The notes beneath the pieces were generated by a model that saw only the letters and a program-made list of their open reading frames with translations, made no database searches and was not told where the DNA came from. Below, piece by piece: positions 14,158 to 63,916 of a DNA stretch of 64,000 nucleotides; position 1 is the stretch's first letter, and the number at the start of each line of letters is the position of its first letter. Where the stretch lies: IMG/VR virus record IMGVR_UViG_3300010429_001883, positions 84,473-148,472 of that record, one strand, 5' to 3'. The position numbers and the translations under genes were made by a program. The DNA is from a virus. Lineage: Duplodnaviria; Caudoviricetes.

Positions 14158-14202
14158 GGGTACTGAAGGGGTTAACACCCTAATTTCTTAGGAGGTTTGA
14201 AT

Positions 14203-14979: not shown

Positions 14980-14990
14980 TTAGTTTTTGC

Positions 14991-15019
14991 TTGACTTTTC
15001 TTTTGGGGTGAGCTACTAT
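14991..15019 (+). promoter_or_regulatory. Sigma70-type promoter
   Basis: TTGACT (14991-14996), 17-nt spacer, TACTAT (15014-15019). Confidence 0.6.
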
Positions 15020-15043
15020 GTTAGTAGCCACCCCTTTTCTTTT
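15005..15043 (+). terminator. Intrinsic terminator after the tail tube gene
   Basis: GGGGTG-A-GCTACTA-TGT-TAGTAGC-CACCCC followed by TTTTCTTTT. Confidence 0.75.
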
Positions 15044-15052
15044 GGAGGAGTT

Positions 15053-15990: not shown

Positions 15991-15993
15991 ACT

Positions 15994-17199: not shown

Positions 17200-17927
17200 G
17201 TAAATATTTTACTGCGGCGCAAAGCACAATTTACATTAACTCTATATTAGCTGATGAAATATTTGCCGTAAGTTATAATGAAACTTCTAATACAGTGCCT
17301 GTTTATGGTTATGCATCACGTAAATTTGATGCCGTAGTGCGTGGAAAGAGTATAGTAGAAGGAACTATCTTTGTTTATCATAATAAAGCTAAATATTTTT
17401 GGGTGTTGCTGTCGGAGGCTATTCTAGAGTTTGTTAATGGTAATAAAGAATTAGAAACTAAAAAGTCTGGTTTTGAAACAACTCTTAGGGAGTTGGCATC
17501 TGGAGTTAAAACCGGCAGCATTAGTGAATCTGATGCCGCTAAAAAATTGAGTGCGTTAATTGATAGTTCTCCGGCTGATTTAGATATTTTATTGCCAACG
17601 GCTCAAAGTATATTTAATAATGAATTTGCATCAATACGTCCTAAAAATAATCCAAGAAAGGCTTATGGCGAAGATATAATGGATGTTTTAACTCAGCATG
17701 CTGGCGGCACAACGTCAGCCAGATATCTATCAGAGGTTGACATAGCTGGACCATTTAGACTTAGCATAAATACAGGACTAATTGGCAGTAAGAATGATCA
17801 GCGACCACTTTTAGTGGACGGAGTGAATGATTGTTTTATTACCGGTAAGGGTACAGATATAGCAAATGATGATAAGATTTTATATAAGGCATATACCTTT
17901 TTTGGTAGAGAAGAACTAAAAGCATGA
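17196..17927 (+). CDS. Second, more distant tail tube paralogue
   Basis: YFTAAQSTIYI...VSYNETSNTVPVYGYAS..FDAVVRGKSIVEGTI...YTFFGRE parallels the tube motifs. Confidence 0.6.
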   Translation: MSKYFTAAQSTIYINSILADEIFAVSYNETSNTVPVYGYASRKFDAVVRGKSIVEGTIFVYHNKAKYFWVLLSEAILEFVNGNKELETKKSGFETTLRELASGVKTGSISESDAAKKLSALIDSSPADLDILLPTAQSIFNNEFASIRPKNNPRKAYGEDIMDVLTQHAGGTTSARYLSEVDIAGPFRLSINTGLIGSKNDQRPLLVDGVNDCFITGKGTDIANDDKILYKAYTFFGREELKA

Positions 17928-18499
17928 TAAAAAAGAAGTTATATAGAATGGTTGTTGAAAATAAACTTGATATTGACTTTACACAACCAACATTAAAAAC
18001 ACTAGATCGAGCTAAGACCGATATAGAATGGTTACCTTTTCCTATGCGGCACTATCTGTCAGCGCTAGATGTTTTTAGAACCAGTGTGGTAGGTGGCGAA
18101 GAAAAAATTAGACAAATGGCGGCAGGCACTATCCTTAGCATTGGAATGATAATATTATCATTTTCTGGGTTATTCGCTGATAAAGATAAAATGGACTCTG
18201 ACTTTAAAAGGGCTAAAGAAAACTGTGGAAATTACTTTAATCATATACGTAATTTAGCTGCTATTCATTTTGGTTACAAATTTGAAGAGTCTGCCGAATG
18301 GGACTACGATAAATTAATAGAGATTGCTGCAAGGCTAAGTCTTGTCACTTCTCAAGATTTATCTATTAGCAAATTAACTGAAACTAAGAAACCCAGTGCG
18401 ACAATAAACGCTAACGAGGTTACAATAACAAAGGGAGCAGCAATCCCAGAACAAGTAGTTGATTTTCATAATACTAAAACATTTACTAAAGAAAATTAA
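17924..18499 (+). CDS. Putative tail assembly chaperone
   Basis: 191-aa helical protein between the tube genes and the giant tape-measure-position gene; call is positional only. Confidence 0.4.
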   Translation: MIKKKLYRMVVENKLDIDFTQPTLKTLDRAKTDIEWLPFPMRHYLSALDVFRTSVVGGEEKIRQMAAGTILSIGMIILSFSGLFADKDKMDSDFKRAKENCGNYFNHIRNLAAIHFGYKFEESAEWDYDKLIEIAARLSLVTSQDLSISKLTETKKPSATINANEVTITKGAAIPEQVVDFHNTKTFTKEN

Positions 18500-21400
18500 T
18501 GGCAAAATCCTCGGTTAATGACATTTTTGTAGATATATTCTTAGACTTGGAAGCAAGTTTTGATCCTACGTCTGAACAATCCTATCAAAATTTAAAACAA
18601 TTAAATAAAAGAATTCTTAATTCGAGGGCTACTAAACGAAGCCACCGCGGCATTGTTTCTTCCCAACACAGAGCAGCGCATGTTATTGATTTAGCGTATT
18701 CAACATTTAATTCTAACAAGAAGATAAGTAAGCCGTTAACAAGTTTTATTAAAGAAAGACAGCTTGCTGCCGATCCTAAAAAATTTGTAGGCGATTTCTG
18801 GAAAACCACAGAAGAACCAAGAAAACTTTTGGAAGAGTTGCGGTCATTTGCATCTGGTAAAACAACAGCAACAAAATTTATACAACCCATAGATGCATTA
18901 ACTGAGTTTTTAGAGCATGTTGATGAGCAAGCCAAGTTAGCAGCCAAGGTTGGCAAGAAAGTAAGAATCAGTGGGTGGTCATTACAGTATGATCTATCTG
19001 TACTAATAGGCAATATTGAGGGAATACTTTCTTCTGGAAAGAGAAAAGATCCGGCAATTGCTGCTAAACTGCATAAACTATCTTCTGTATATAATCAATT
19101 TGTTGATCATATTCAACGAAAAACAATTACTACCCACAGCCTAGAAACTGGGTTTTTGAAATACCGCGCCGCCCTGGTTGCTAAGGCATATGAAAAGTAT
19201 GGTCAATCATTTATTTCCAACACTAAACTTAATGAAAGCGCCGTCAAGCATATATCGAATGTTATAAGGAAAGGGGATGCTGCTGCTTTTGATGAATTAA
19301 TAAGTGGTCGAACGGCTAAATTTGGTGGATATAGGGTAGAAGATGTTTTAAGGTTTTTAGATATTTATGGTGGAAAAGAAAAACACCGCGCAGCAATGGA
19401 TGTTTTACAAGAAACAGACATTGCTTTAAGGTTTAGAGATTTTAATCCATTTGTAGACGATCCTTTTGAATATGCTAAAAAGGTTGGTGGTAAGTCTGTT
19501 ACTGCTATAACTGATCAGCAGGTTTTTTATAAACGAGCCATAAAAGAAATTATAGTGCCAGATAGGATGGGACGAGCGGTGGCTGGGGAAGCGGCGGCTG
19601 CGGTTGGGTCAGCCTCTTCACAAATAGTTAAAGGCCAAAGTTCAATTATATCAAGACTTGCTCTAGGTAAAATTTCTTCCAACAAAGCAATAAAGATAGC
19701 TGGCATTGGTGCTCTTGCTGTTGTTGGTTTAGGTGTTGTGCAGAGACTTTGGGATAGTGCTGGCGACGATGATTATTCTAATAAGCATGAAGCTCTAATA
19801 GGAAGTTCACATAAAAAGTTTGGTATTTTTGGTTCTGGTTACCGCGGAGGTAGGAGTGACTATCTAGATCGAAAGATAGAAGAGGCACGCTCTCGTGGAT
19901 CGATGTTTGTTGGTGCTAGCTATGTTGGATTGCCAACAAGAGAGATTAGACAGAAATTAGTTTCTAATATAGTTGCAAATAGCCCATATGGTGGGGCTGG
20001 TGGTTTTGGCGGAAGAAAGAAAAATACAACATATTCAGAAACGGCCGCTGGTTTTGGTACTTTTGCTCACCAAATAGCTCAACGTGAAATGATGGATACC
20101 GGCAGTTACACCGGTAAAACTTTGACGTGGCGACAAAATTTTGCAGATGCGATAATAGGTCGGGATAGAGGAAAGGGAATTACTCCCGAATATAAGGCTG
20201 TTAGCCAAGAAACCGGCATGTATGGCAGTATAGACGTACTGCAAAATGAAGTTATTATTGAACATAAGTTTGTTACAGCTGGAATTTTTGAGACAATTGT
20301 TAGAACTGGAAAACCATTCCCGTCCCATGTGCTCCAGATAAATGCATATATGGGTATGCTTGGTAAACGAAAAGCACAACTAATATACACTAACAGAGAA
20401 AATCTTCAACAGAGAATAGTTTTTGATGTTGATTTTGGTGAAAAAGCATATAAGCAAACTGCTAGAAAAGTAAGAAAAGCCTCTAGGCAGGCAATGCGTG
20501 ATGCATTAGAAATGGGAGTTGATGTTTCTAGTTTGCCTGTTAATGAGGACATTACTGGACAAGAAACACAAATACCTTCAATGGAAGAACTGAAAGAAAG
20601 GTATCCTGTTGAACTCTTCCATGCGTTAACAGTTAGACGCGGTATTCCAACTAATCTTGAAAAATTAAGAGAAGATCGGGACTTAGAACAACAACGTGTT
20701 CGTGCTAGGAAAGGTAATATAATTGAGGGCATGAGACACGGGTGGTTTGGCAGTTCTAGAAAAGATAGAACAGACTTCGGTTCTGGTTTTAGACCAGAAG
20801 ATGAATATGGTACTCCTGATAACGTATGGACATCCAGGGCGGTAGCTGTAGCTGCTGTTGGTGGTTTTGCCTATGGGATGGCAAAACACCCGGTTTGGCT
20901 TTATAATAAAATTAAGAAACTTGAAGATAGAAGTCCTTTACAAATACTTAAAACTTTTCGTTTATCTGAAAGACTTCAGCCTCGTGTTATCAGTGCTCTT
21001 GATAGCAAAGGTAAACAAGTAATCCCAGCATCTGCTTTATTAATACGTGGCGGTTCTGCGATGCGCGGCCGATCTTATGCGTACGCAGATACCTCTCTAA
21101 CAAAACTAGGGATGTTGGTGCAAAATTTACTTGGCGAATTACCAATTGATGAGAAAGGTAATTTAGTTTTTACAAAGGCGGAAGGAAATTTTTATAAAAT
21201 AGCTGTAGGGGGGCAAGAGAAATTTGTCACCTTTGCGTCAGCAAATACTAGGCTAGCCTCTGCGGCGTTTAGATATAATAAGCGAACAGGAGAGAAAGCT
21301 CTTTCTGATTTTGAAGTAGCAGCTACCAAAAGAATGTCAAATATGCCAGAATGGTTTAAAGCTTTTGCTGGCATGCATAACGCTAAGAAAACTAAGACAG

Positions 21401-24400
21401 AAGAGTTAATTTATAAAGCTGGATTACAAATCCAAAAATTAAAATTATCTCAGATAGAACAAAAATTAACGGGTGTTGCTGATGATGCCGTTGCACCAAT
21501 ATATGCTACAACTAAAAGTACGCCAATTTTAAGAACAGCAGATATATTTTTACAAAAATCTAGGCGCGCAGCTCTTGGAGGACTTGAAAGATTTAATAGA
21601 TTGATTGCTGAGTTTGGAGTGGCGTTGCCGGCTGGTTCTTTTAATAGGGTTTTAACGGTTCCATGGAACGACGTAGTAGCTCGTACCCCTGTGGGTAAAA
21701 AACTTGGGATGCAGGTTGGTAGGCGCGGTTTTATAAATCAATTATTAGCTAAAAGGTATTTCCCCATAGCAGCAATTGCTGCGACTGCCGGGCTTTTGGA
21801 TTATGTTACTGGACATACAGTATCAGATATGCCTGTAGAAACATATGCTAATACACAAATAGGCATGTCTACTGTTGCTCGTATGACTGGACTGAATAAA
21901 TATAAAGAACTTATAAATACAATTTCTCCTGTTCCAGATTATGGGATTGCTCTAGCAACACTATCTACAGCAGCGATAGGTTCTCAAATATATGCTAATA
22001 GGCTTGCAGCTTCTAATAATATTGCTCCTGCTTTGTCGCGCCTAGGAGTTACTCAACAATTTTCTACATATGAAAAATTTTCCACCCGTGCTGGACAGGC
22101 TCTTGCCAGTGAATCCTATACGCCTGCTTATCAAACACTGAAGAAAAAGTTGTTAACAAAAAGCCTAAAGGGTGCGGCTTTACTTGCAGCTCCTTTTATT
22201 GCCAGTGCTCTTATACCAGAAGAATCTCCTCAGGAATTAAGAGATATTTATAGTGGCCGACAAGAAATTGAAGTCATGAAAGGGCGATGGTGGGAAACAT
22301 CTTCTACTCCATATGAAGGCGATAAGACTAAAGAATTTCGTCAGCATTTCGTTGCTAGGTTCTTAAATAGGCAATGGATAAAAGATGAATATGGCTCTGA
22401 AGGTGAATATTGGAAAAGAAATTTGGGCACCCCAATTGGGTGGTTTAATTTACTAACCGATCCATATGGCAAAGAAGTAGAAGCTGCGAAAAGAGGACGT
22501 AACTTTCCTTTAACAGAAGAACTATTTTTAGATGTACCTTTTTCTGATATAACCGGCTTAAGATTTATTGGGCATGCGTTAAAGCCACCAAAATTTATGC
22601 ATGCTCGAAGTGTTGAAGATTTTGCTAGGATGTATGAATCAGAGAACCCAGACTTAGAGCCATCCTATGAGCTTGGAGGACTGAAGCCACTGGTTCCTCA
22701 AATGCCGTGGAGCTTAAGGAATATGGCTGCCAGAACTTTTTCTCAATATACAACAGTAGCAGGGTTACCTGGTTTTATAGGAACAACTACGTCCAAAAAA
22801 TTGTTAGGCGAAGAAAATGTTTTTATTGATAAGTATACCCCAACGCTACAGGCAGCCAATGAGATAGGTAATCAAGAACGTTGGTTTTATGGATTAGAAT
22901 TGGGCGGCGCTGCCTTTTTGTCTGAGCCTGTTCGTAGGTACATTCAACGAACACCGCGACAATTTGGTGCTCCCTATAACCCAATACCAAATGATTTGCC
23001 CGACTGGTTATCTGGAAAAAATGAGTTAAAAGATTTAGCAACGGGCGATGCTATAGCAAAAGTTGGATTCAACGCTAGATATTTGCCTCCTAGGGGGGAA
23101 GGCGAGGAGTACAACGAACTACAAAAGGCAGAAGCCTTAGCACATGTGCAGCCCTATAGTAGAAGATTAACTAGGATGTTTTCTGCATTAGATGAAGTCG
23201 CTCTTGAGCCTATGGCTAGATACCGAGTTGAGGAACTGAAGCAACAAGTAAAAGCAATAAAAGAAAGAGAAAAATTTTCTGAAAACACGTTTGCAACGCC
23301 GTTGGCTGGATATAGTGGGACTGTTGAGCAAGTTGAGGGCGAATATTTAAAACTAAAAGAATACCCTTTTAAGGAATTTAAAGTAGGGGGATTTGCTTTA
23401 AATTATTATCAGACGGCAAAGAATTTTATTAGAACTGAAAATATTTCTATACAAAGGGCCGCCATGCGTGCCGCTGAAGTTCAAGAAAAAGCTAGAGAGC
23501 ATATTGAGAAACAGCTTACACCGGGAACTAGAATTGGCTTTGCTGCAGCCGCCGGTGCGCCAGAAAATTTACGTCAAGTTGATATAGCTGTATATACATC
23601 TAATGGCCTTTTAAATAGAGAAGTAAAAGATAAGTATAATTTACCAATAGAGCAAAATAAAGCCATAAGCCAACTTATGTATTCTGCCCCCACTAGGGCA
23701 ATGGGAACAGTGGCTGAATCTATATTTCATGACCCGGCTCTTCCAACAATGGCAAAATTTGCTGGTAAATATACAGCACTAGAAAAATATAAAAAAGAAA
23801 GGGTCTATGGAAAGAAAATAAAACTTTGGGATAACCCAATAGAAAGTTTTATTATGCAACCTGCTTATGGTGCCTCACGTCGATTTGGGTCTGTTGTACC
23901 CTTTAATCCTTTTTCTGGATTTGATGATGAATATAATAGCATAGAGGGTTTGAAGGGGAATGTTCACCAGCAATTTGGAGTATTCGGTAGCGGATTTATA
24001 AATAAACTTGGCAATATAATGGAAACAACCTTATCAAAGATATTGTTTTCTGGTAAGGGGATGTCTCCGCTTGTAAGTAGTGAAAAATATTTATTAATTG
24101 ATGCCGATAAAACATTATTTGGAGGTTTTCTTGACACGGCATTTAACGCTGTTAACAGAGTAAGCCCTAGCATAGCCAGAGATTTATATGCTTCTAGCAC
24201 AGCTCGATTTATTTCTTCTAGAATTCCTGTAACAAAACAAGGAAAAAATGTTTTATCTATGGCTGAAAGAGCCAAAAGTTTTGGTTTTAAACCAATACTT
24301 TTTACCGACAGGCCGATAGAACACGCCAGCTCTACAATAGGGGCACTGAAGCGCTCCGTAGGGGATAAGCGGATTGAAAATTTATTCGAAGGAAGGTATT

Positions 24401-25515
24401 ATTTTGGTGCTGGCAAAAAGCAGTCTTCTGTTTTACCAGAATCTTTTTTAATAGATGACAGAATTACAGAGTATGGTAGTTTAGTTAAAGGAGGGCTACA
24501 CCCAGGAAGTGAAGGTATTGCAACAGCATTCATTAGACAAACTACTCCCTTTGGTTCTGGTTTTGCTTCATCAGATCGATATGTGCCTGTTCCTGGATAC
24601 ACTGAAAACATCAGAAAGTATAATGAATATTTTGATAAATTAGAATACATAAAATGGATAAAACTTGCAAAACAGGCAGAGGAAAAAGGACACGATAGGC
24701 TAATATCTTACTATATGGCGAAAGCTAGGGGCACGATGATTGGTATAAACCCCCTAATAGCAGAACCAGAACAAGTTATGCAGGTTTTACCAAAATCTGA
24801 GCGTCCTTATTTTGCTGCATTCGCTAATGAGCCCAATCCCGAGAAGCGACAGGAAATTATGGAAATGCTTCCTGCATCTCAAAGAAGACTAATGGCTGGG
24901 ACTTGGTTTAGGCAAATGAATCATGCGTCTATGTTGGAGGAAGAAATTCCACAGTATCGGGAGTATGTTCGTAATGAAGGATATATGACAGATGCTGAAA
25001 AACAAGTTATTCCTGGGCTTGCTAAGGTATATGGTGGAGCAGTTGAGCCTGCTGCTCTTGATCGTATGGCAGAAATTTATCAGTTTTTAGATGAAAATAA
25101 TCTTCCACTTCCGAGTGAAAATTGGAAAGGGTGGCAAGCACAAATTGATATGCAAGATCTGAAACTTATGTATTTAAAAAGCATAGGTGAAGATATCCAT
25201 GAATATGATCTGTGGGAAGACCGTGAAAGAATGCTTGCTAGAAAACCATACTTGAAAAACACGCTGGGTGCTTTACGAAACAACTTTAATCCGTCTGGTA
25301 CCATTAGTGTCATGGATGGGATATTAAAAGACAATGGAGTATTAGCTAATAGGTATTCTTCTACACCTACAACTGAGACTAGTTTTACTCTTAACTTTGG
25401 TGTTGATCCTGATACTATGTTATATGATACTGATTTTAATAGAGCAATAGATGATTCAATGAGAAAGACACGGCCAGGCTTTGATAATCTAGACCTTTAT
25501 CTTGGGAGAATGTAG
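18499..25515 (+). CDS. Giant tape-measure-position multidomain protein (DEDDh exonuclease, PD-(D/E)XK nuclease, SNase-like, HAD phosphatase, several membrane-like helices)
   Basis: 2338 aa. DLE/YD/HRAAMD (D16, E18, D165, H296, D301); GSID...IEHK...QINAY (D579, E588, K590, Q613, Y617); GTVEQVEGEY...VYTSNGLLNRE; IDADKTL...FTDR...IDDR (D1868). Basic, Ala/Gly-rich helical core with apolar segments. Confidence 0.75.
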   Translation: MAKSSVNDIFVDIFLDLEASFDPTSEQSYQNLKQLNKRILNSRATKRSHRGIVSSQHRAAHVIDLAYSTFNSNKKISKPLTSFIKERQLAADPKKFVGDFWKTTEEPRKLLEELRSFASGKTTATKFIQPIDALTEFLEHVDEQAKLAAKVGKKVRISGWSLQYDLSVLIGNIEGILSSGKRKDPAIAAKLHKLSSVYNQFVDHIQRKTITTHSLETGFLKYRAALVAKAYEKYGQSFISNTKLNESAVKHISNVIRKGDAAAFDELISGRTAKFGGYRVEDVLRFLDIYGGKEKHRAAMDVLQETDIALRFRDFNPFVDDPFEYAKKVGGKSVTAITDQQVFYKRAIKEIIVPDRMGRAVAGEAAAAVGSASSQIVKGQSSIISRLALGKISSNKAIKIAGIGALAVVGLGVVQRLWDSAGDDDYSNKHEALIGSSHKKFGIFGSGYRGGRSDYLDRKIEEARSRGSMFVGASYVGLPTREIRQKLVSNIVANSPYGGAGGFGGRKKNTTYSETAAGFGTFAHQIAQREMMDTGSYTGKTLTWRQNFADAIIGRDRGKGITPEYKAVSQETGMYGSIDVLQNEVIIEHKFVTAGIFETIVRTGKPFPSHVLQINAYMGMLGKRKAQLIYTNRENLQQRIVFDVDFGEKAYKQTARKVRKASRQAMRDALEMGVDVSSLPVNEDITGQETQIPSMEELKERYPVELFHALTVRRGIPTNLEKLREDRDLEQQRVRARKGNIIEGMRHGWFGSSRKDRTDFGSGFRPEDEYGTPDNVWTSRAVAVAAVGGFAYGMAKHPVWLYNKIKKLEDRSPLQILKTFRLSERLQPRVISALDSKGKQVIPASALLIRGGSAMRGRSYAYADTSLTKLGMLVQNLLGELPIDEKGNLVFTKAEGNFYKIAVGGQEKFVTFASANTRLASAAFRYNKRTGEKALSDFEVAATKRMSNMPEWFKAFAGMHNAKKTKTEELIYKAGLQIQKLKLSQIEQKLTGVADDAVAPIYATTKSTPILRTADIFLQKSRRAALGGLERFNRLIAEFGVALPAGSFNRVLTVPWNDVVARTPVGKKLGMQVGRRGFINQLLAKRYFPIAAIAATAGLLDYVTGHTVSDMPVETYANTQIGMSTVARMTGLNKYKELINTISPVPDYGIALATLSTAAIGSQIYANRLAASNNIAPALSRLGVTQQFSTYEKFSTRAGQALASESYTPAYQTLKKKLLTKSLKGAALLAAPFIASALIPEESPQELRDIYSGRQEIEVMKGRWWETSSTPYEGDKTKEFRQHFVARFLNRQWIKDEYGSEGEYWKRNLGTPIGWFNLLTDPYGKEVEAAKRGRNFPLTEELFLDVPFSDITGLRFIGHALKPPKFMHARSVEDFARMYESENPDLEPSYELGGLKPLVPQMPWSLRNMAARTFSQYTTVAGLPGFIGTTTSKKLLGEENVFIDKYTPTLQAANEIGNQERWFYGLELGGAAFLSEPVRRYIQRTPRQFGAPYNPIPNDLPDWLSGKNELKDLATGDAIAKVGFNARYLPPRGEGEEYNELQKAEALAHVQPYSRRLTRMFSALDEVALEPMARYRVEELKQQVKAIKEREKFSENTFATPLAGYSGTVEQVEGEYLKLKEYPFKEFKVGGFALNYYQTAKNFIRTENISIQRAAMRAAEVQEKAREHIEKQLTPGTRIGFAAAAGAPENLRQVDIAVYTSNGLLNREVKDKYNLPIEQNKAISQLMYSAPTRAMGTVAESIFHDPALPTMAKFAGKYTALEKYKKERVYGKKIKLWDNPIESFIMQPAYGASRRFGSVVPFNPFSGFDDEYNSIEGLKGNVHQQFGVFGSGFINKLGNIMETTLSKILFSGKGMSPLVSSEKYLLIDADKTLFGGFLDTAFNAVNRVSPSIARDLYASSTARFISSRIPVTKQGKNVLSMAERAKSFGFKPILFTDRPIEHASSTIGALKRSVGDKRIENLFEGRYYFGAGKKQSSVLPESFLIDDRITEYGSLVKGGLHPGSEGIATAFIRQTTPFGSGFASSDRYVPVPGYTENIRKYNEYFDKLEYIKWIKLAKQAEEKGHDRLISYYMAKARGTMIGINPLIAEPEQVMQVLPKSERPYFAAFANEPNPEKRQEIMEMLPASQRRLMAGTWFRQMNHASMLEEEIPQYREYVRNEGYMTDAEKQVIPGLAKVYGGAVEPAALDRMAEIYQFLDENNLPLPSENWKGWQAQIDMQDLKLMYLKSIGEDIHEYDLWEDRERMLARKPYLKNTLGALRNNFNPSGTISVMDGILKDNGVLANRYSSTPTTETSFTLNFGVDPDTMLYDTDFNRAIDDSMRKTRPGFDNLDLYLGRM
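19762..19842 (+). repeat. Peptide repeat 1, left type (GDDDY...HKKFGIFGSGY)
   Basis: Precedes the PD-(D/E)XK domain; resembles repeat 3. Confidence 0.65.
20713..20790 (+). repeat. Peptide repeat 2, right type (GNIIEGMRHG...RKDRTDFGSGF)
   Basis: Follows the PD-(D/E)XK domain. Confidence 0.65.
23911..23997 (+). repeat. Peptide repeat 3, left type (FSGFDDEYNSIEGLKGNVHQQFGVFGSGF)
   Basis: Precedes the HAD domain; resembles repeat 1 and shares IEG with repeat 2. Confidence 0.65.
24490..24564 (+). repeat. Peptide repeat 4, right type (GGLHPGSEG...IRQTTPFGSGF)
   Basis: Follows the HAD domain; R-x-x-T-[DP]-FGSGF ending similar to repeat 2. Confidence 0.6.
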
Positions 25516-28500: not shown

Positions 28501-30464
28501 AGCAGAAAATTATGGATGTGGCAAGAGCAGAAGAATCTTTACAGTTAAGTTTAGAAAAAGGAGACGCGGCGGGAGTTAGGTCGTCTCTTGTTAAATTAAA
28601 GAAAGCACAAAGAGAATACGCCACAACTCCAGGAATTGGTTTAACTGGTAAAAGGTCTATACTTCGTGATTTGGGTCCAACAGAGGGCGGCACGAGGTTT
28701 ACAATTCATTCAAATATAACTGCCAAGCAATTCGAAAGCGTAGCCGAAGTTGGTGAAGTTGGTTTAATTGACCTTGGTTTTAATCAGGAGGAGATAGCAA
28801 AAATAAAAACTGCTGCCAAGAAGGCTGGCGGAGTAACGGATGTATCTGGTGTTTTGTATGGTACCAGATGGCCGATAACTTCTGGTGGTTTTTATAAATT
28901 GAAATTTAATCAAGATATAATGGATAAAACAATTCGTACCACAACCCTTATGGACCAGTTATCTATGATTGATAGAGATAAAGACGCTATGGATGCTGTA
29001 TTTTTTAGAGGTAAGGGATTGGCTGGTGCCGAACTAACGCAGGAACAGATTAAGACAATATTTGAAAGACAAAAGCAATTACTTAAAACTGCTGAGCCAC
29101 TGATGTTTCAGTTTAAGTCTGCGTTTGACTACACAAAGAGCGATGTAAAGGGGATGCCATCTTATTTTAATTCAGCTGGATTTGCTGACCTTTTAAAAGA
29201 CCAAGGAATAACTGATTTTAAAGACGTAAATAAATGGAAAGAAGTTGGAACAATACAAAAACAATATGATGATATGCTGTCCTCTATTACTGGCGGTAAG
29301 GCCGACAAGCAGCTAATGGAAGAATTTACACAATTTGAAACAGATTATGGCCACATGTTTTATAAAAATAAAGATAAAGCTATGAGGAGGCTAAGATCTG
29401 CCGAAGCATTTTCGCATATGAAACTTTTTGAACAAACGTTTGTTCGCAAAATAGGTGGCAAGGGGATTATTCCACAAACAACGAATATGACTAGATTAAT
29501 GGATGTTTTGGCTCAACGTGGCGGAATAACTGAAATGGGGGATAAAGCACGAACACAGATTCAACTGTTGGGTGAGGCTCTTTTCCAATTTCCAATTCAC
29601 TCTCTTAAGCACGCCGACTCGGCGTCGATGTTAAACTTTGCTCAGATGACAGATAGAGCTATGCAAGAACTTAAGAAAGGAAATGTTGATAAATATTTTG
29701 AAGAATTGGGTTCTTCCTCGTTTTTTAGAGAAAAATTAATAAAACCCGATTTATTAAAGAGAAAGGATTTGACCAAAGCCAAAGTAGATGCTATAATGAA
29801 AGACGAAGAACTATATAGGAAGGCATCTAAAGATTACTTTAATAAATATTATTCTGAATTGTCAACAGCTTTGAAAACCGCCGCCGGAGCAGGACCAGAG
29901 GAATTTAATGAAATTGTTCGTGGCGTCGAGGGCTTTTATTCTAAGACAGGGAATTTGGGGTATATGAATAAACGCATGGCAGCTATGGCTGCCCATACGC
30001 TTGTTCCAGAGGAAATTATATCAAAGGCAGGTATGGCGAAAAAAGATGTTGCTTTAGATGTAGCTAAAACAACATTAAAGAAGCATCCTGCTGTTGCTAT
30101 TAGTGTTGGAGGAGGGGTGGCCGCTTTAGCTCTTATAGGGATGTTACAGTCTCCTAGTGATACTTCTCCATTAATTTCTCCAACTGCTGCTGATAAAGAA
30201 GCCATGAGTAAGAAAAGGCCAACATCCCCAGCAGATGCTTTGGGGATGCCAAGAGAACCAAGTTTTTTAGATAATTTGAAAAGAGCCACCGGCGGTCGAT
30301 TTGCTTCCGAAGGAACAGTATCTTATGATACAAACGGCGAACAGCTTGGCAAACAAATACAGCAAAAATTAGGATCAAATGATGTTAAAGTTAACATTAT
30401 GAATCCCTATGATAGTAGAACATCTATACGGACAAGACGCAGAATAAGCGGAGAACAACAATGA
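25515..30464 (+). CDS. Putative single-chain two-barrel (DPBB) RNA polymerase-like virion protein
   Basis: 1649 aa, GTG start. Ordered motifs GAGQALGSKEF, LKPGQILGR, GKSLDLLY (beta-like), then LTGKRSILRDLG, GTRFTI, GEVGL, YGTRWP and IDRDKDAM (beta-prime-like). Hydrophobic helices near both termini. Confidence 0.6.
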   Translation: MPDSNEKLRVNDSRSISSFLGIAGVGAAVFAGGWHLLNNAGLREAMSGGVKGVTNVDMRAAAAKGILRQRQEDFIRPGFEAAFEANQKKFAEFGSKETLHRVNKALDTALNPKSSRIDYILKRNKQKLDKAREDLARATTPRDKERLLQRVAGKERIEKHFMSKAKQLVVDANDSLNKTLKPYLAGTDLGSLKNTKETFLAVYKSLAKTNPSEAAKLYNTVSMMSEMAASGKTISANSRIGSKFKKRGLTAVSKSRRLGFLEAGGYLEGLSKKQVKALSSSAGFRVYSRQTAGGEMAFVSFGTSNRIWSLGEAGSKSISSVYEHVGSGGGILSGMLVKKAGGQFEEVKGSTYVLSKIAETAEMAGKAISKEDEEILSALYAHRTSNTAALWQAHGTNSPLRGFATNRALVEEMVLDRGFMHNTEAVSELSSKLANQGYVPAAGGSAIETVYKMFGFDEKGQKIATGLGAETYKFNVWDEASGWLPKEMKMADWLMQHHGKFKDQFELYRAHMKMDYLVSSAEEGDKFFQPLSKTQAKLRVNAGVLSNKQFQDFRELSALAQELKGNVKSFKETDILDALTGGKVSQKLLKNLGISEGSVIDRTKAAAIAKQFAKMGQVGVEDLHYIANIGAGQALGSKEFMQRINSIEFASVFDVDDFSSDIVEKINRAKPGETIEIKNLKPGQILGRKDNRSIRLAKDGTRKYRAEIMKTEKGYKVIAYGQHAHREYMSKTARSFTGAGENLDRRLVVMGDLRGGLSHAKELMSTIGGKKYQDTMEAVTALLSGGKSLDLLYGEDILSNAPSYVKTMAVKSMEQTKKTGKYVPLMIQSYFSLWAAGAAHIGSKAKGDILHAQMMRNMGLDFMIPKYFAKMTSLNKEGLQLALKMTEAYQTGTDAVGDLIKTQVSNVNELREVLGKGIASEEYAGGFKYKSRKGLIDEVRKMYGDTDPKISKLLDSIKDQEYYYMPGARSGLQEKIAAAAKEGAASQRPLYSTKLEQKIMDVARAEESLQLSLEKGDAAGVRSSLVKLKKAQREYATTPGIGLTGKRSILRDLGPTEGGTRFTIHSNITAKQFESVAEVGEVGLIDLGFNQEEIAKIKTAAKKAGGVTDVSGVLYGTRWPITSGGFYKLKFNQDIMDKTIRTTTLMDQLSMIDRDKDAMDAVFFRGKGLAGAELTQEQIKTIFERQKQLLKTAEPLMFQFKSAFDYTKSDVKGMPSYFNSAGFADLLKDQGITDFKDVNKWKEVGTIQKQYDDMLSSITGGKADKQLMEEFTQFETDYGHMFYKNKDKAMRRLRSAEAFSHMKLFEQTFVRKIGGKGIIPQTTNMTRLMDVLAQRGGITEMGDKARTQIQLLGEALFQFPIHSLKHADSASMLNFAQMTDRAMQELKKGNVDKYFEELGSSSFFREKLIKPDLLKRKDLTKAKVDAIMKDEELYRKASKDYFNKYYSELSTALKTAAGAGPEEFNEIVRGVEGFYSKTGNLGYMNKRMAAMAAHTLVPEEIISKAGMAKKDVALDVAKTTLKKHPAVAISVGGGVAALALIGMLQSPSDTSPLISPTAADKEAMSKKRPTSPADALGMPREPSFLDNLKRATGGRFASEGTVSYDTNGEQLGKQIQQKLGSNDVKVNIMNPYDSRTSIRTRRRISGEQQ

Positions 30465-33400
30465 AGGATAATGACGTATTAGCATTTAAATCTTTAGACC
30501 ATCCAGCTCAGTCGGAGTTTACAATTGGTTACATTAAATTAGAAGTACCTCCCTCTGATATACATGTCACTAAAAGTACCAATTCTATGTTTTTGGGGGC
30601 TTTAAGAAGTCCTGCTGATACGCCATTTAAAACCGGATATTCAAATTGGGATATAACAGTTCGTATGCAGTTTTATGGTGAAGAAGAAATTGCTTCCAAG
30701 CTTCTTCCAATTGTTGGGATGTGTAAAGTTGCTCCCATTGTAAATGTAAATAATTTGACAATAAAAGAGCAGCTTTTTGGGCATTTGGCAGGAACTTTAG
30801 GTGCTTCTACTGCTGTGGATGATTTAGACTTTTTAGGAACTCTTAATTACTATTATTCAAAAGATAACACTATTTCTGTTATTATTGAAGGAATGTCAAT
30901 AAATGTTATGTCTCAATATGGCGGGCTGTGTCTAGATGTTAATTTATATTTGAAATATTATAATCACCATGCAGTCAGTCCTTATTTTAGAATTAATGAA
31001 GAAAAACTCAAGGGAAGAGTTGACAGATGGATACAACAAGCTAAATTAAATTATGATACGCACGTTAATGCTATAAAAAATTTTAAAGTTAATTTAAATT
31101 CTGATAATGAATTTATGGTGGTTGGTAGATATTTTCATGCTATCTCTACTGGTGGTGTATCCTTTGGAACTCTTATAGAGCTTTTAAAATCAATGGCTGT
31201 GCCAGAAAAAGATAGAGCAGATGCAATTAATGATATATTAGAGAAAGATAAATATAAGAGAGATCTCTATAATAAAAAAATGGAAGAGCTGGAAAAAACG
31301 TTACAAGAAGCACAAGCTAAGGAACGTGCCAGCCAACAAACTAAACCTGATCCCCAAAAAGAGGGAGCAAGCAGTAAAATAAAATTAGGGTGGCCTTTAA
31401 AACAACATACAATTGTACATGATTGGGGAGAATCTGGACATACGATTACCAGATCTAATCCAACAGGAGTCCATGAGGGAGTTGATTTGAGGGCTGCACA
31501 AAGAACACCGGTATTCGCAGCTGAATCAGGAAAGGTTGTAACGGCTTCTGAAGATACTCAGTATAGTGGTGGTTTAGTTGTTATATCTCATGAAGGTGGA
31601 ATTACAACACACTATGCACACTTAAGTCAAGTGTGGGTCAGAGTTGGTATGAAGGTGGAAAAGGGACAGCAAATAGGAGAATCTGGGGGTACGCCAGGAA
31701 CAAAGGGCGCGGGTTCTTCGAGTGGACCGCACCTACATTTTGCTGTTAAGGAAAAAGGCAAGCCAGTTGACCCAAAATTATATTTAGATTTAAATGATAA
31801 TTATAAAAACATTCGTCCAATAGCAGCCGGAGCACAGACGCCTGAAATAAATATTGGTAAAACGCCGTATCAAGAAATAAGAGATTCAGAGCAGCTAAGG
31901 GCAGCAGCCGAAGATATAAAAAATAAGTTAGAAGACGGATGGACAGTTGATATAATGAAAACGGACGAAAACTACATAGTCTTTTTTAAAGAATTTGGTA
32001 TTCCGTTTTTTAAAGATTTCAATATTTCTAGTTATATGGATTATGATATACAGGGGTTTAAACTTGTTGATACAAGAGCAAGAATAATTCTTAACAGTAT
32101 AGGCATATCATTAAAAAATAAATTTGTTCCTATTCCTATTGCCGGGTACCCAATGCCGTTTTATCAGCATTTGGGCGGATGTAATGTTTCTGTTGGTGTG
32201 GGGGGCTTGGCACTAGTTGATGAGAAGACTGGAACATGTACTCCGCTATCTAATTTACAGGCCTTATATAACTTGAAAGAAGTTCAATTCTTAGCTTTGC
32301 GTGGTAAAATTGATTACACGCCTGGTTCTAATTATGATATACAAGGAGTAAGAATACTTAATAAACCGCTGGGTCTTCTTGGTCTTGTTAATTTTGTTAT
32401 CTCTGATTTGGCTGTTGGTACAGTACCTGACACGCCGAACGCTATGAATGTTAATTTAAACATGTTTGAGAACTATGTCTATGATAATACAATTTATAAT
32501 GATTCAGGTAATATTAGTATTTTTCAGGACTATATTTTACCAGATTTAATAGTTGATGAACTTAAAAAATTAGGCCCAATAGAGGCAAAGAACCTTGGGC
32601 CGGAAACATTTAAGCTATACTTACAAATACAAGTTTGGGACAAGTTTGAAAGAGATAATCCCAACTATATGAAGAATATAAATAACGATGCCAAATTGGT
32701 TGAAGCCACTAAGAAAACTATAGAAGGTTGGGCCAACGTAGAAAAACTAAACAGCCTTTTGCCTGCTGGTGGTTTAGAGGATTATCAGAAATTAATGGGT
32801 GGGAGTTTTTTACACGGATCGATTGTCCAGACGCTTGTGTGGATGACTTCTATGGGCGTTCCAGGTACAGGGACTGTCGCAGCAGGACCAATTCCATCTT
32901 TACCGTTGCTTTTTGCTAAGCCAGTTACAGAAATAATTGATGTATACTTTATGCCATCTATTAAGCAAGCAAGCTGGATGGAGCATGCACAAACAAGGCG
33001 AGAGTATATTCAAGATTTTTACACAAAAAATTGTGATAAAGATCCATTTTTGATCTGGATAAGGGATAAAATCAATCGTGGCGAGTATACGCACGAACTC
33101 AAGAATAGATTTAATTTTGATATGGATGCATTGACAAGGACGTGTTATCCAGATCTTTTATTACAGAGGGGAGAAGACCCTGGTGCATATATAGATTCTG
33201 GGCTAGAACCAGACCCAGAACAGATGAGTCAATTATGTGCAGAATCGGTTGTCGTTTCTAACGCCGCCATTCAAAATATAAAAGAACATTATTCTGGTTT
33301 ACTTCGGTATAAAACAGTAGAATTAAGTTATGCGGAGGGGGCAGAAGACAAGGGTCAGGGTGTTTTAAATAAACCAGAGACAGAGCCTTTGAAGCATTCT

Positions 33401-36373
33401 AGTTCAGACGGCCCATATGAAACCAATGCCTCATCCTATATTAATTTAATGACGGCTGTTGATACAAACGGCGGTACTCATCTAGTTGTTGATCAATTTA
33501 CATACGATACAAGTTTTCCTACTTTTAAGATATATTTAATAGAAGACGTAGCTGCTGACGATTCTTCGGAGTTTCTGGGGTTAAAACAAGTAGAGTGGGA
33601 TAAGTTTTACAGTTACTCCGCTGTTACTGAAATTGAGGTAGCTAGGTTTAAGCATGATGTAGATGTTGCAGTTATTAAATTCTTAAATACGTTTGGTAAT
33701 TTAACAACAAAAATTTATGGAGCAGATGTTTATTTAACGCAAGAATTTAGTAGAGACGTTATTGAAAAAGATTTTGAAAATAGATACAGACTGCAACGAA
33801 TGGATAATGGAACACTTGTCCAAATGGATAGGTTTACAAACGAATTGATGCCTATAACTAAAATGTTTTTACAGGCAGGAACAAAAATACTTATTAAACT
33901 AGGATACCATAATTTAGAACATAAATTGCCAACAGTATTTACAGGGCTGGTTACAGAGGTGCAGCCAGGGGAAATAGTTACTGTTGTATGCCAGGGATTT
34001 TTAAGTGAACTTTTGGCTCCATTAGATGGTAGGTTTCCCTCTAGCTTTGGTGGGAAAATTAGACAGTTGCTTGGTTTGGACGCTACAAGTTCCGGGTTAA
34101 TGGAAGATGCGTCCACCTATTTAGCGCACAATGCGGAGCTTATGACTTATTATGGTCAAAAAATATATGAAGATCCGACATACGCTGCCAGGCTATTTAA
34201 TGTAGTTAATCATTATAATTCACTTACGTCACTTTATGATAGATTTATGGGAAAATCGCAGCCAACCGCTTCTGGTAAAATGGGGGGACAGGGCATTGAT
34301 CCAAGACTTAGAAAAATACATAGAGCTGTCCACCTAAACAACGCCTGTACGGCAGTTATAGTACAGAAATTGTTGGAACATCCTGCAGCTATACACTTTG
34401 GTGGGTGGTACCTAACTAATTCTGGAATGGATGGGTCAGCTACAATGTTTGGTGGATTTTTTGATGTGTGGATAGGACAGAGCAATAGATCAATAGAAAA
34501 CATTGATCCTGTTTTATTAAGTGCGTGGCAGAAGGACAATAACTTATTAGCGATTTATCCGACTTTTCCTACTTTTTATGTTAATGATAAGAATATGTCC
34601 ACAGTTTGGGAAACAATAAGAGAACTTGGATATAGACATCCAACACATATTACGACAGTACGTCCATATGGTACCAATGCTTCTCTTATAATGAAAGAAA
34701 GGACCGATACATACAAAACATCTGGTTTAAGTTTTTATGGAAACACTAGAACTGAAATTGTTCAAACTAATATTTTTGCTAAGTTTTTGAACGAAGAATA
34801 CAATATAAAAACTTTTACTGATGACATGTTTAAAATTTATCATGGTGCCACATTTGATAATTTCAATAATTATGTTGCAATAACAGCGGAAACAAAGAAA
34901 GCCATACAAGACTATATTTTGTACTATGGCAAGCCCACTAAGCAACAAATTTATTATGTTTCCGCAGATAAAGTAATGGCAAAAAATGAAATATATTTTG
35001 AAGAGTCTTTGCCTGCTGGTACCGTTTTTGTGAAACCATCGGATATTTGGACGGTGGCTTTACAAATGGGGAAGTTAGAATTTTTTAAGCTTTTTTTGCC
35101 TGCCGATATGTATCTTGTTTTGGCTGATAAATTTACTAATTTTAAAGCTAAACAAGCAAAAATAGATCCAGTACTTGGGCCACAGCTTTCAGTTGAAAGA
35201 GAAGTAGAACCAGTAACAATGCCACACTATGTTAGCGATAAAGTTAATATGGTTTTTAATAATATAAGAACTAATGAAAACATATTTAATGCTGTTCTTA
35301 TAAAGAAAGATGTAGAAGACATAGCATTAGAAAGTATGATTGCCTTAGATGACAATATTTTAGATTCTCATAAAAAGGTGTTTAATTATACAAGTAAAAA
35401 CATACAAGCAAATGCTGAAGACATGGATGCTAGAAAATTTAATGATTTGCAGGCACTATATGGATTTTCTATTTTAATGGAAAAACTTGCACAAATGTAT
35501 AAAGGCGAGTTAGCTATGGTAGGTAATCCAAACATACGTCCATTTGATACCATAGTTTTGGATGATGCTCAATCGCAACTTTATGGGTCTTTCGAAGTAG
35601 CCTCTGTGATCCACAGGTTTACACAAGATGAAGGTTTCGTAACTTTTGTTGAGCCACACCTCATATCAAATGTTTCCAATTATGCCCTGGCGGCTGCACA
35701 GGGTAGAATAGAGGATATGGTAAGAGAGGGTAATAAACAATCTAGATTTTTACGATCAAGAGAAGAAAGAAATATATATTCCTCTAGTGAGACGGCTAGA
35801 GAATTTATGAAAACAAACCCCAACGCTAGTGGTGATTTTATAACATCAACAGGCAGCAATGCATCTCAGTTGCTGTTAAAATATTTTGCTGCAGGAACTA
35901 CGGGTGGTTTGTCTGGTCTAATAGCAAGCACAGAAATGGGTAGAAGTTTTTTTGATGATGAGGGGGCTAAGGGGGCTGAGATAGGTGCTTATATTGGCAT
36001 GTATCAGGCTGCAGATGCCTATGTACTAGGAGATTGGATTAGCGCCGCATCGAAAGCAAGAAGTCTGCCTATGTTCATGTTTAGTAGATTTTTTCCTAGC
36101 TGGGCATCAACGTTATCTAACTACATGTATCATGCCGGGCCATATAGACAGCCTATTGTTATCAAGCCGTTAACATTAAGATCTGTTCCATTTATAGCTG
36201 GAATAAAGGGGGCTGTATTTAATAGTTGGTTCGATAGCGCAACTATGGGGCTTTCAAGAGCAATAAAAGCGTTACCGGAAGAATTTGTGGCGTTAAATAA
36301 AGGACTTCGTAGTATGATTAGGGCATACAACCATACAATTGGATCTAAATTTAAGTTCTTGAGGTTTAATTAA
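30461..36373 (+). CDS. Large baseplate hub protein with an internal M23 (LytM) peptidoglycan endopeptidase
   Basis: 1970 aa. M23 at about 31388-31786: HEGVD (HxxxD), THYAHL, GPHLHF (HxH), VDP. Hub-like motifs IKLGY...LPTVFTGLVTEV and YKGELAMVGNPNIRPFD...FEVASVIHRF..DEGFVT. Confidence 0.8.
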   Translation: MKDNDVLAFKSLDHPAQSEFTIGYIKLEVPPSDIHVTKSTNSMFLGALRSPADTPFKTGYSNWDITVRMQFYGEEEIASKLLPIVGMCKVAPIVNVNNLTIKEQLFGHLAGTLGASTAVDDLDFLGTLNYYYSKDNTISVIIEGMSINVMSQYGGLCLDVNLYLKYYNHHAVSPYFRINEEKLKGRVDRWIQQAKLNYDTHVNAIKNFKVNLNSDNEFMVVGRYFHAISTGGVSFGTLIELLKSMAVPEKDRADAINDILEKDKYKRDLYNKKMEELEKTLQEAQAKERASQQTKPDPQKEGASSKIKLGWPLKQHTIVHDWGESGHTITRSNPTGVHEGVDLRAAQRTPVFAAESGKVVTASEDTQYSGGLVVISHEGGITTHYAHLSQVWVRVGMKVEKGQQIGESGGTPGTKGAGSSSGPHLHFAVKEKGKPVDPKLYLDLNDNYKNIRPIAAGAQTPEINIGKTPYQEIRDSEQLRAAAEDIKNKLEDGWTVDIMKTDENYIVFFKEFGIPFFKDFNISSYMDYDIQGFKLVDTRARIILNSIGISLKNKFVPIPIAGYPMPFYQHLGGCNVSVGVGGLALVDEKTGTCTPLSNLQALYNLKEVQFLALRGKIDYTPGSNYDIQGVRILNKPLGLLGLVNFVISDLAVGTVPDTPNAMNVNLNMFENYVYDNTIYNDSGNISIFQDYILPDLIVDELKKLGPIEAKNLGPETFKLYLQIQVWDKFERDNPNYMKNINNDAKLVEATKKTIEGWANVEKLNSLLPAGGLEDYQKLMGGSFLHGSIVQTLVWMTSMGVPGTGTVAAGPIPSLPLLFAKPVTEIIDVYFMPSIKQASWMEHAQTRREYIQDFYTKNCDKDPFLIWIRDKINRGEYTHELKNRFNFDMDALTRTCYPDLLLQRGEDPGAYIDSGLEPDPEQMSQLCAESVVVSNAAIQNIKEHYSGLLRYKTVELSYAEGAEDKGQGVLNKPETEPLKHSSSDGPYETNASSYINLMTAVDTNGGTHLVVDQFTYDTSFPTFKIYLIEDVAADDSSEFLGLKQVEWDKFYSYSAVTEIEVARFKHDVDVAVIKFLNTFGNLTTKIYGADVYLTQEFSRDVIEKDFENRYRLQRMDNGTLVQMDRFTNELMPITKMFLQAGTKILIKLGYHNLEHKLPTVFTGLVTEVQPGEIVTVVCQGFLSELLAPLDGRFPSSFGGKIRQLLGLDATSSGLMEDASTYLAHNAELMTYYGQKIYEDPTYAARLFNVVNHYNSLTSLYDRFMGKSQPTASGKMGGQGIDPRLRKIHRAVHLNNACTAVIVQKLLEHPAAIHFGGWYLTNSGMDGSATMFGGFFDVWIGQSNRSIENIDPVLLSAWQKDNNLLAIYPTFPTFYVNDKNMSTVWETIRELGYRHPTHITTVRPYGTNASLIMKERTDTYKTSGLSFYGNTRTEIVQTNIFAKFLNEEYNIKTFTDDMFKIYHGATFDNFNNYVAITAETKKAIQDYILYYGKPTKQQIYYVSADKVMAKNEIYFEESLPAGTVFVKPSDIWTVALQMGKLEFFKLFLPADMYLVLADKFTNFKAKQAKIDPVLGPQLSVEREVEPVTMPHYVSDKVNMVFNNIRTNENIFNAVLIKKDVEDIALESMIALDDNILDSHKKVFNYTSKNIQANAEDMDARKFNDLQALYGFSILMEKLAQMYKGELAMVGNPNIRPFDTIVLDDAQSQLYGSFEVASVIHRFTQDEGFVTFVEPHLISNVSNYALAAAQGRIEDMVREGNKQSRFLRSREERNIYSSSETAREFMKTNPNASGDFITSTGSNASQLLLKYFAAGTTGGLSGLIASTEMGRSFFDDEGAKGAEIGAYIGMYQAADAYVLGDWISAASKARSLPMFMFSRFFPSWASTLSNYMYHAGPYRQPIVIKPLTLRSVPFIAGIKGAVFNSWFDSATMGLSRAIKALPEEFVALNKGLRSMIRAYNHTIGSKFKFLRFN

Positions 36374-63913: not shown

Positions 63914-63916
63914 GGC

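Follow-up and report, generated by a model that had tools for sequence, protein, structure and literature searches.

Three coupled giant genes in the tape-measure slot of a contractile-tailed phage, the second with a predicted RNA-polymerase-type barrel

What do three giant proteins do that are encoded where the tape measure and the hub of a phage tail normally sit? The question is raised by a 64,000-nucleotide stretch of viral DNA, here called the window, which is the final 64 kb of the 148,472-bp viral record IMGVR_UViG_3300010429_001883 (positions 84,473 to 148,472; completeness estimate for the record, 78%). Three consecutive open reading frames (ORFs) in the window encode proteins that we call giants 1, 2 and 3 (P0001, P0002 and P0003). 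We observed that this trio fills the tape-measure/hub slot, from tail tube to baseplate, of a contractile-tailed phage (myophage) related to Bacillus phage 0305phi8-36, and that a structure model of giant 2 contains a barrel of the type found in RNA polymerase (RNAP). From these observations, we hypothesize that the trio provides the lumen and hub proteins of a 0305phi8-36-lineage contractile tail and serves as an injected infection-initiation kit with an RNAP core, a reading to which we give somewhat better than even credence.

18499..25515, plus strand: giant 1 (P0001), ORF of 2338 amino acids (aa), ATG start, 261 kDa, isoelectric point (pI) 9.44, no cysteine
25515..30464, plus strand: giant 2 (P0002), ORF of 1649 aa, GTG start, pI 9.52, no cysteine
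30461..36373, plus strand: giant 3 (P0003), ORF of 1970 aa, ATG start, pI 5.81, nine cysteines

A preliminary description of the window had pointed to three large overlapping ORFs, the first two with basic products bearing membrane-like helices, and all of this is borne out. ORFs of 2338, 1649 and 1970 aa lie at the positions listed, giants 1 and 2 are basic in comparison with giant 3, and hydrophobic helices are found in P0001 (aa 397-415 and 1222-1240) as well as in P0002 (aa 15-33 and 1526-1544). Overlaps of 1, 1, 4 and 1 nucleotides (TAATG, TAGTG, ATGA and TAATG) join the three giant genes to each other and to both flanking genes, GGAG-like sites precede giants 2 and 3, and the three giant ORFs are translationally coupled.

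The predicted polymerase-type barrel of giant 2

The second giant had been described as RNAP-like, a call that holds at the level of fold and catalytic motif. As judged from structure models, giant 2 is a protein with an embedded beta-prime-type double-psi beta-barrel (DPBB) that carries a DxDxD catalytic motif, and polymerase activity is predicted for it. The features of the protein are as follows.

25557..25613, plus strand: hydrophobic helix near the N-terminus, aa 15-33, with an equivalent in the same location in the family members and in ME3_36 of Acinetobacter phage ME3
28671..29105, plus strand: beta-prime-type DPBB, aa ~1053-1197, from an AlphaFold2 (AF2) model, Foldseek and VIA-align
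28866..28880, plus strand: RWPIT (R1118, P1120, T1122), invariant in the family
28971..28985, plus strand: DRDKD (D1153, D1155, D1157), candidate DxDxD loop for Mg binding, invariant throughout the family
30090..30146, plus strand: C-terminal hydrophobic helix, aa 1526-1544, about 110 residues before the C-terminus
30387..30461, plus strand: conserved basic C-terminal tail (..DSRTSIRTRRRISGEQQ), with S1637, R1639, T1640, R1642 and R1643 invariant

The giant 2 alignment consists of six proteins that share about 21-55% identity (53% to P0002 for P0005, 26-30% for P0006-P0009). Residues R1118, P1120, T1122, D1153, D1155 and D1157 are invariant in all six, as are further positions on either side of the barrel, namely K928/Y929/S931, K1046, F1183/Q1186 and Q1358/P1360/I1361/K1365/H1366. 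The two motifs make up a signature, RxP...DxDxD, whose spacing can be compared with that of the catalytic barrel of E. coli RNAP (beta') and of gp96, the tape-measure protein of phage P23-45.

P0002: RWPITSGG...DRDKD, RxP-to-DxDxD spacing 36 residues
E. coli beta': RAPTLH...NADFDGD, RxP-to-DxDxD spacing 36 residues
P23-45 gp96: RNPVMGHGG...DFDGD, RxP-to-DxDxD spacing 39 residues

The signature also occurs in the giant 2 equivalents of two cultured phages, with REPAQG...DHDQD at residue 1217 of ME3_36 (1603 aa) and NRYPTIN...KADHDGD at aa 1996 of gp095 of Bacillus phage WH1 (2515 aa, 'virion structural protein'; L016:10593-18140, L016 being our label for WH1). The latter protein, from a cultured phage of Bacillus cereus, has no polymerase annotation.

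The AF2 model of aa 900-1215 has a mean pLDDT of 67, with 68-93 in the barrel. A Foldseek search of the PDB with this model gave 330 matches at E<=1e-3 (best E 2.7e-5), the top 50 of which are all largest subunits of RNAPs (beta'/Rpb1/RpoA', probability 0.97-1.0) and span bacterial, archaeal, plastid and eukaryotic enzymes. With VIA-align, model residues 147-287 superpose on residues 343-489 of E. coli beta' (Z 7.2, root mean square deviation 3.9, 115 aligned), a range that spans the catalytic loop NADFDGD at 458-464. The corresponding Z-scores are 6.7 for Mtb beta' and 5.6 for P23-45 gp96, with the vaccinia, archaeal, AR9 and phiKZ barrels within 5.6-6.7 and designed DPBBs at 6.1-6.2. In BFVD, an uncharacterised ME3 protein gives the top match (E 1e-5) with a fragment of 802 aa, which is probably the second half of the 1603-aa ME3_36, as its size would fit.

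The remainder of giant 2 is made of long helices. A helix comparable to the C-terminal one lies about 110-125 aa from the C-terminus in ME3_36, in WH1 gp095 and in gp146 of 0305phi8-36, and the basic tail that follows it in giant 2 is a candidate hub-docking end. Searches for further relatives of giant 2 found none, whether by tblastn of P0002 against 50,697 phage records, by megablast of the region, or by profile search of a 5.8-billion-protein set, IMG/VR and the JGI metagenomes; the alignment therefore stays at six rows.

The tail module, the hub and the trio in relatives

The slot of the giants had been described as lying between a chaperone and the baseplate. We find the tube upstream and the baseplate downstream, so that this part stands; the chaperone label comes from position alone, and no similarity was found between the product of 17924-18499 and gp143/144 of 0305phi8-36.

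12197-14110: tail sheath (phrog_16991, 1e-55)
14197-14979: tail tube, equivalent to 0305phi8-36 gp140 (9e-34)
15994-17199: tube paralogue, equivalent to 0305phi8-36 gp141
17196-17927: homologue of 0305phi8-36 gp142
17924-18499: putative chaperone
37132: ME3_39 homologue, downstream of the trio
37518: gp150/ME3_40 homologue, downstream of the trio
37976-39190: gp6/J-like baseplate wedge, downstream of the trio

A thymidylate kinase gene (15346-15990; phrog_761, 2e-34) sits within this tail module, between the tube gene and its paralogue, and has the same location in L003 and L004 (L-numbers denote uncultured relatives, with the exception of L016).

Giant 3 had been credited with an M23 peptidase, and the domain is unmistakable: it scores 98.4 bits against a PF01551 cut-off of 28.7, retains the zinc ligands HEGVD at 338 (HxxxD) and HLH at 424 (HxH), and has PDB M23 matches that reach 2e-21. 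On sequence homology, giant 3 is a baseplate hub that carries this wall hydrolase. The hub assignment to the gp27/gpD type runs via homology to gp147 of 0305phi8-36 and to ME3_37, gp147 having been placed by HHsearch in the T4 gp27 / P2 gpD hub family (PMC2147016).

31469..31774, plus strand: M23 peptidase domain, aa 337-438 (Pfam PF01551, 2.8e-28)
33569..34018, plus strand: hub-homology block 1, aa 1037-1186, common with gp147 aa 865-1009
35201..35809, plus strand: hub-homology block 2, aa 1581-1783, matching ME3_37 aa 1819-2018, gp147 aa 1344-1413 and phrog_20474

The hubs of relatives bear a GH108 lysozyme in place of M23, from which it follows that the wall-cutting module is exchangeable on a constant hub. 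Such an exchange was described for gp147 by Hardies et al. (PMC2147016).

A synteny survey of related phages, which the preliminary description had called for, shows that the three-giant arrangement is shared. By tblastn, distant relatives of giants 1 and 3 are present in five cultured phages: Bacillus phages 0305phi8-36, WH1 and Edson, Acinetobacter phage ME3 and Moorella phage MTATph1. Their records, those of 0305phi8-36, ME3 and WH1 included, have in common the gene order of tube, tube paralogue, chaperonins, three giants and baseplate, and the trio is also kept in five uncultured relatives that were found via the giant 2 family. P0001 matches gp145 at 2.5e-30 and ME3_35 at 6e-23, while P0003 matches ME3_37 ('baseplate hub') at 3.1e-36 and gp147 at 3.4e-20. 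The equivalents of giants 1, 2 and 3 are as follows.

0305phi8-36: gp145-147
ME3: 35-37 (gp35/gp36/gp37)
WH1: gp096-094 (gp096/gp095/gp094)

A close parallel in known biology is with 0305phi8-36 (Thomas et al. 2007; Hardies et al. 2007, PMC2147016), which has its three giants in the same order, gp145 resembling giant 1 and gp147 resembling giant 3, the latter as a gp27/gpD-type hub with wall-degrading domains that include M23 (PMC2147016). Its record notes both gp145, the giant 1 homologue, and gp146, the counterpart of giant 2 by position, as 'identified as virion protein by mass spectrometry'. The two phages differ in that gp146 lacks the RxP...DxDxD signature and has no detectable similarity to P0002, and in that gp145 has neither FGSG brackets nor the nuclease cassette described below. 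The YonO-like RNAP of 0305phi8-36 (orf99) is located elsewhere in its genome (PMC2147016, PMC7824862). In ME3 and WH1, whose giant 2 equivalents do bear the signature, these have no sequence similarity to P0002, the annotation of the giants goes no further than hypothetical or virion structural protein, and there are no FGSG-bracketed cassettes. In a survey of jumbo phages, Iyer et al. (PMC7824862) reported two-barrel RNAPs only in group 1 phages, 0305phi8-36 (orf99) and c-st; ME3 is not listed there.

Bracketed enzyme cassettes in giant 1

Giant 1 consists of a core conserved among relatives and of segments that come and go between them, in the following order.

18499..19818, plus strand: N-terminal region, aa 1-440, common only to the closest relative L003 and ending in the helix aa 397-415
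19828..19842, plus strand: FGSGY bracket of type A (GSSHKKFGIFGSGY), upstream of cassette 1
20017..20484, plus strand: RecB/Cas4-like PD-(D/E)XK nuclease, aa 507-662 (phrog_1706, 1.7e-12)
20776..20790, plus strand: FGSGF bracket of type B (GSSRKDRTDFGSGF), downstream of cassette 1
20890..24012, plus strand: conserved core part 1, aa 798-1838, with blastp matches to L004, L006, L007, gp145 and ME3_35
23983..23997, plus strand: FGSGF bracket of type A (NVHQQFGVFGSGF), upstream of cassette 2
24010..24552, plus strand: cassette 2, aa ~1838-2018, HAD-phosphatase-like by motifs
24550..24564, plus strand: FGSGF bracket of type B (IRQTTPFGSGF), downstream of cassette 2
24568..25512, plus strand: conserved core part 2, aa 2024-2338, with blastp matches to L004, L006, L007, gp145 and ME3_35

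The most conserved block of core part 1 holds the hydrophobic helix aa 1222-1240. LAGLIDADG-type inteins interrupt the conserved core in L004 (3387-10004) and L007 (3-7571). The N-terminal region had no match in Pfam, NCBIfam or the PDB and a weak one to a tail-protein PHROG (0.0033); a DEDDh exonuclease considered there from the strings DLE, YD and HRAAMD is a guess, having found no backing in these libraries or in a homologue search.

The nuclease that had been proposed for the first giant holds at profile level, and its motifs GSID576, EHK588 and QINAY613 leave the D...ExK...QxxxY series intact. Cassette 1 (aa ~467-770) is matched at 35% identity by aa 136-401 of giant 1 of L006. The Cas4 family TIGR00372 reaches an E of only 0.18, and Cas4 proper can be rejected, its four-cysteine Fe-S cluster being impossible in a protein with no cysteine; for this reason, we regard the nuclease as RecB-like. 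Cassette 2 contains the HAD-like strings LLIDADKTL at 1867, ILFTD at 1934, GAGKK at 1970 and FLIDD at 1984. It occurs only in this phage and in L003, and is missing at that point in L004, L006 and L007. In L004, the N-terminal part of giant 1 contains a DnaQ-type 3'-5' exonuclease (PF01612, DNA_pol_A_exo1, 7e-28).

Both cassettes are enclosed by the pentapeptide FGSG[FY], which is found four times in P0001 and nowhere else in a six-frame translation of the 148-kb genome. The upstream copies (type A) follow the consensus G-x-x-H-[KQ]-[KQ]-F-G-[IV]-F-G-S-G-[FY], the downstream ones (type B) R-x-x-T-[DP]-F-G-S-G-F. The copies use differing codons, and selection therefore acts on the peptide. The motif is also present in giant 1 of L003, L006 and L007 and is absent from that of L004, which is without these cassettes; from this distribution, it follows that the motif travels with the cassette. 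We know of no junction motif of this form. The brackets could either be protease sites at which the enzyme is freed or form the two strands of an insertion stalk, and the repetition of the motif suggests that giant 1 may be a polyprotein that undergoes cleavage. No autoprotease domain was recognised for the bracketed protein. Directly after the hub gene of L004 lie an IS605 OrfB/TnpB-like gene and a caspase-like (Peptidase_C14) gene (L004:21539-23488), and the latter, encoding a protease next to the trio, may have a bearing on how FGSG sites are processed.

MuF-toxin fusions in phage heads and Rhs/PAAR effectors combine a delivery scaffold with exchangeable enzyme modules at short conserved junction motifs. 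Giant 1 resembles them as a conserved delivery scaffold with swappable, motif-delimited modules and differs from them in that its cassettes are internal and bracketed on both sides, rather than being C-terminal tips.

Proposed delivery by the tail and rival explanations

A further property sets giants 1 and 2 apart. Their combined 3987 residues include no cysteine, whereas cysteine makes up 0.83% of the residues encoded by the 35 other ORFs of the window (P ~4e-15). The absence extends to nine of nine giant 2 proteins, including gp146, ME3_36 and WH1 gp095, and to six of eight giant 1 proteins, gp145 among them. The two exceptions, L004 and L007, are the intein-bearing ones: all eight cysteines of L004 giant 1 lie within its 401-aa intein insert, which starts with Cys888, and most of those of L007 are in or beside the insert, with one in a cassette. 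The hubs have 4-25 cysteines. P23-45 gp96 has none in 5002 residues. The absence of cysteine may characterise proteins that cross the tube and the periplasm in an unfolded state, and its lineage-wide occurrence offers a simple sequence marker for tail-exiting proteins.

The closest precedent is Thermus phage P23-45, whose tape measure contains in its N-terminal part a two-barrel RNAP carried in the virion (Chaban et al. 2024, PMC10770324; PDB 8H2M/8H2N). This enzyme transcribes pre-early genes, including that of a second, non-virion RNAP, and the authors termed the fusion 'previously unsuspected'. It is only for Thermus siphophages that a virion RNAP linked to the tape measure has been demonstrated. 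Giant 2 and gp96 are both cysteine-free giants encoded in the tape-measure slot, their RxP...DxDxD barrels can be superposed at Z 5.6, and both phages have a second, separate candidate polymerase gene (gp64 in P23-45, the ORF at genome 14298-17738 here). They differ in that P23-45 is a siphovirus whereas the tail here is contractile, and in that the polymerase is N-terminal in gp96 (aa 327-1124 of 5002) and lies in the C-terminal half of the 1649 aa here. In addition, the polymerase-type domain of giant 2 is flanked by hydrophobic helices, and the protein itself stands between a giant with enzyme cassettes, upstream, and a separate giant hub, downstream. Activity and presence in the virion have been shown for gp96 only; by analogy with it, giant 2 would be delivered to the cell and act there as a polymerase.

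Taken together, we propose the following course of infection. The giant 3 hub would cut peptidoglycan cross-links with its M23 domain while the tube is being forced into the envelope. The virion would hold giants 1 and 2, the most probable place being in or at the lumen of the tail, and one of the two would act as the length ruler, a role that gene position suggests; both would leave the tube in extended form and then insert their hydrophobic helices in the cytoplasmic membrane. Between helical, tape-measure-like arms, giant 2 would carry a diverged single-chain RNAP core that transcribes the first-entering DNA, as P23-45 gp96 does. Giant 1 would be a conserved virion scaffold with exchangeable nucleic-acid enzyme cassettes at fixed points. 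In this phage these are a RecB/Cas4-like nuclease and a HAD-like module, relatives have a DnaQ-type 3'-5' exonuclease, and every cassette would arrive with its own FGSG[FY] pair. The virion location of the giants in this phage, their ejection, the cleavage of giant 1 and the phosphatase are thus all putative.

Of the alternatives, the one that survives best is that giants 1 and 2 are purely structural, the barrel being an inactive relic or a metal-binding module and transcription being left to the host, to a separate phage polymerase or to both. We consider this unlikely, and we stress that many observations speak for it and weigh against a delivered polymerase. P0002 found no link to RNAP in Pfam, NCBIfam, the PHROGs, or the PDB by phmmer and profile search. 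Comparison with gp96 by hhalign was non-significant (P 0.013 for the whole region, 0.12 for the core), with DRDKD aligned to DFDGD; none of the comparisons of the giant 2 profile with E. coli beta and beta', ME3_36, gp146, WH1 gp095 or two large ORFs elsewhere in the genome was significant, DxDxD loops being sometimes aligned in them. The loop DRDKD itself departs from the usual DFDGD. Structural Z-scores of 5-7 are middling, and DPBB folds in many non-polymerase proteins reach similar values, such as 7.2 for a formylmethanofuran dehydrogenase subunit and 7.1 for the AMP phosphorylase N-domain. A beta-type second barrel was not recovered in the AF2 models of aa 780-1560 or aa 900-1215; the longer model is poor (pLDDT 51), its Foldseek list is helical noise and its sole hint of a barrel is a designed DPBB at Z 5.3. 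The second barrel may be sought around the invariant K928/Y929/S931 and K1046, or in the strand-rich aa 680-760 with G740/R745. The signature is absent from gp146 of 0305phi8-36 and from giant 2 of MTATph1 (CDS27); therefore, the RNAP-type domain is not universal in the giant 2 slot, and the mass-spectrometry evidence for gp146 is not directly transferable to the RNAP-bearing protein.

Further points on this side come from outside the barrel. On the minus strand at genome 14298-17738, about 67 kb upstream of the window, an ORF of 1145 aa with 'ELHPEDWATASGDFDGDLAGILP' bears the canonical LHP...DFDGD loop; to judge from its sequence, it is a candidate non-virion RNAP, and it could carry out phage transcription alone. 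As to giant 1, the phosphatase proposed for it in the preliminary description comes down to HAD-like motifs with no profile, homologue or PDB behind them, searches of Pfam, NCBIfam, the PHROGs, the PDB and the 5.8-billion-protein set having given no HAD support, and we know of no protease for the FGSG sites. What leads us to rank the structural alternative below a delivered polymerase is that a relic would drift, whereas the three aspartates and the R, P and T are invariant at about 21% identity, as are the additional positions that flank the barrel; that the signature recurs in ME3_36 and WH1 gp095, which are unalignable by sequence; and that the Foldseek list is dominated by polymerase barrels.

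Somewhat less likely again is that the giants are injected but stored in the head, in the manner of the T7 core, the phiKZ inner body or crAss-like cargo, with another protein, or one of the giants, as the ruler. A globular polymerase core is hard to fit into a tail lumen, and the nuclease likewise; head packaging is known for the RNAPs that N4, crAss-like and phiKZ-like phages carry in their virions (PMC10770324). No Pfam or PHROG tape-measure family matches the giants outside the M23 domain, and their resemblance to tape measures by language-model (ESM Atlas) features is weak (0.81-0.83), ESM Atlas feature searches (scores 0.81-0.86) having given no usable lead. Against head storage, the genes lie strictly between tube/chaperone and hub and are translationally coupled to the hub gene, this order is kept in all relatives, the basic C-terminal tail and the helix about 110 aa from the C-terminus resemble the ends of tape measures, and P23-45 shows that a polymerase can belong to the tape measure. 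A head-cargo block of the crAss-like kind was rejected, as sheath, tube and wedge genes flank the trio. SPbeta YonO and the polymerase of crAss-like phage phi14:2 (gp66, PDB 6VR4) do share with giant 2 a single polypeptide with a DxDxD barrel, and the crAss-like enzyme is a giant protein that the virion delivers and whose gene lies among those for structural proteins (PMC10770324). However, the crAss-like phages are podoviruses with head-stored cargo, the YonO family PF05183 (which covers RNA-dependent RNA polymerases, RdRPs) was not found in this genome, and neither 6VR4 nor QDE-1 is among the listed structural matches of giant 2.

Least of all do we expect the barrel to belong to another two-barrel enzyme (primase-like, RNA-dependent or a PolD-like DNA polymerase) that protects or repairs the entering genome end, for although the superfamily includes RdRPs and archaeal PolD (PMC7824862) and the DNA-end enzymes of giant 1 (nuclease, exonuclease, possibly phosphatase) suggest end processing over transcription, among the structural matches listed, all those with a polymerase function are largest subunits of RNAPs, and the sole characterised tail-fused case is a DNA-dependent RNAP (PMC10770324).

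A delivered polymerase in the tail slot, if true, would extend host-independent first transcription by a tail-delivered enzyme to contractile-tailed phages that infect Bacillus, Acinetobacter and uncultured hosts, and proteins that are currently called 'hypothetical' or 'tape measure' would have to be re-annotated. The signature in the cultured phages ME3 and WH1 makes the idea directly testable. A giant 1 that bears cassettes with a private bracket motif would suggest swapping of injected enzymes, which bears on counter-defence and host takeover. More tentatively, and with the odds against it, we hypothesize that the lineage as a whole, ME3 and WH1 included, ejects two cysteine-free giants, an RNAP that refolds at a membrane pore and a carrier that frees FGSG-bracketed enzymes; such a system would parallel polymorphic effector delivery, with the tail as its vehicle. 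A full-text literature search returned no paper that links a myophage tape-measure-slot protein to RNAP, and we could not find an earlier description of the FGSG-bracketed cassettes or of the lineage-wide absence of cysteine.

Elsewhere in the genome, a second large ORF (1116 aa) lies on the minus strand at 29575-32928; neither it nor the ORF at 14298-17738 had a match in the phage database, Pfam, the PHROGs or the PDB. A ribonucleotide reductase large subunit at genome 73619-77500 contains an intein with a LAGLIDADG domain. In the window, the product of 48756-51677 is a DNA polymerase of family A (phrog_17, 2e-98) into which an HNH endonuclease domain is inserted at aa ~436-530, and the last stretch, 62001-64000 at the record end, has a GC content of 0.49, compared with 0.31-0.43 elsewhere.

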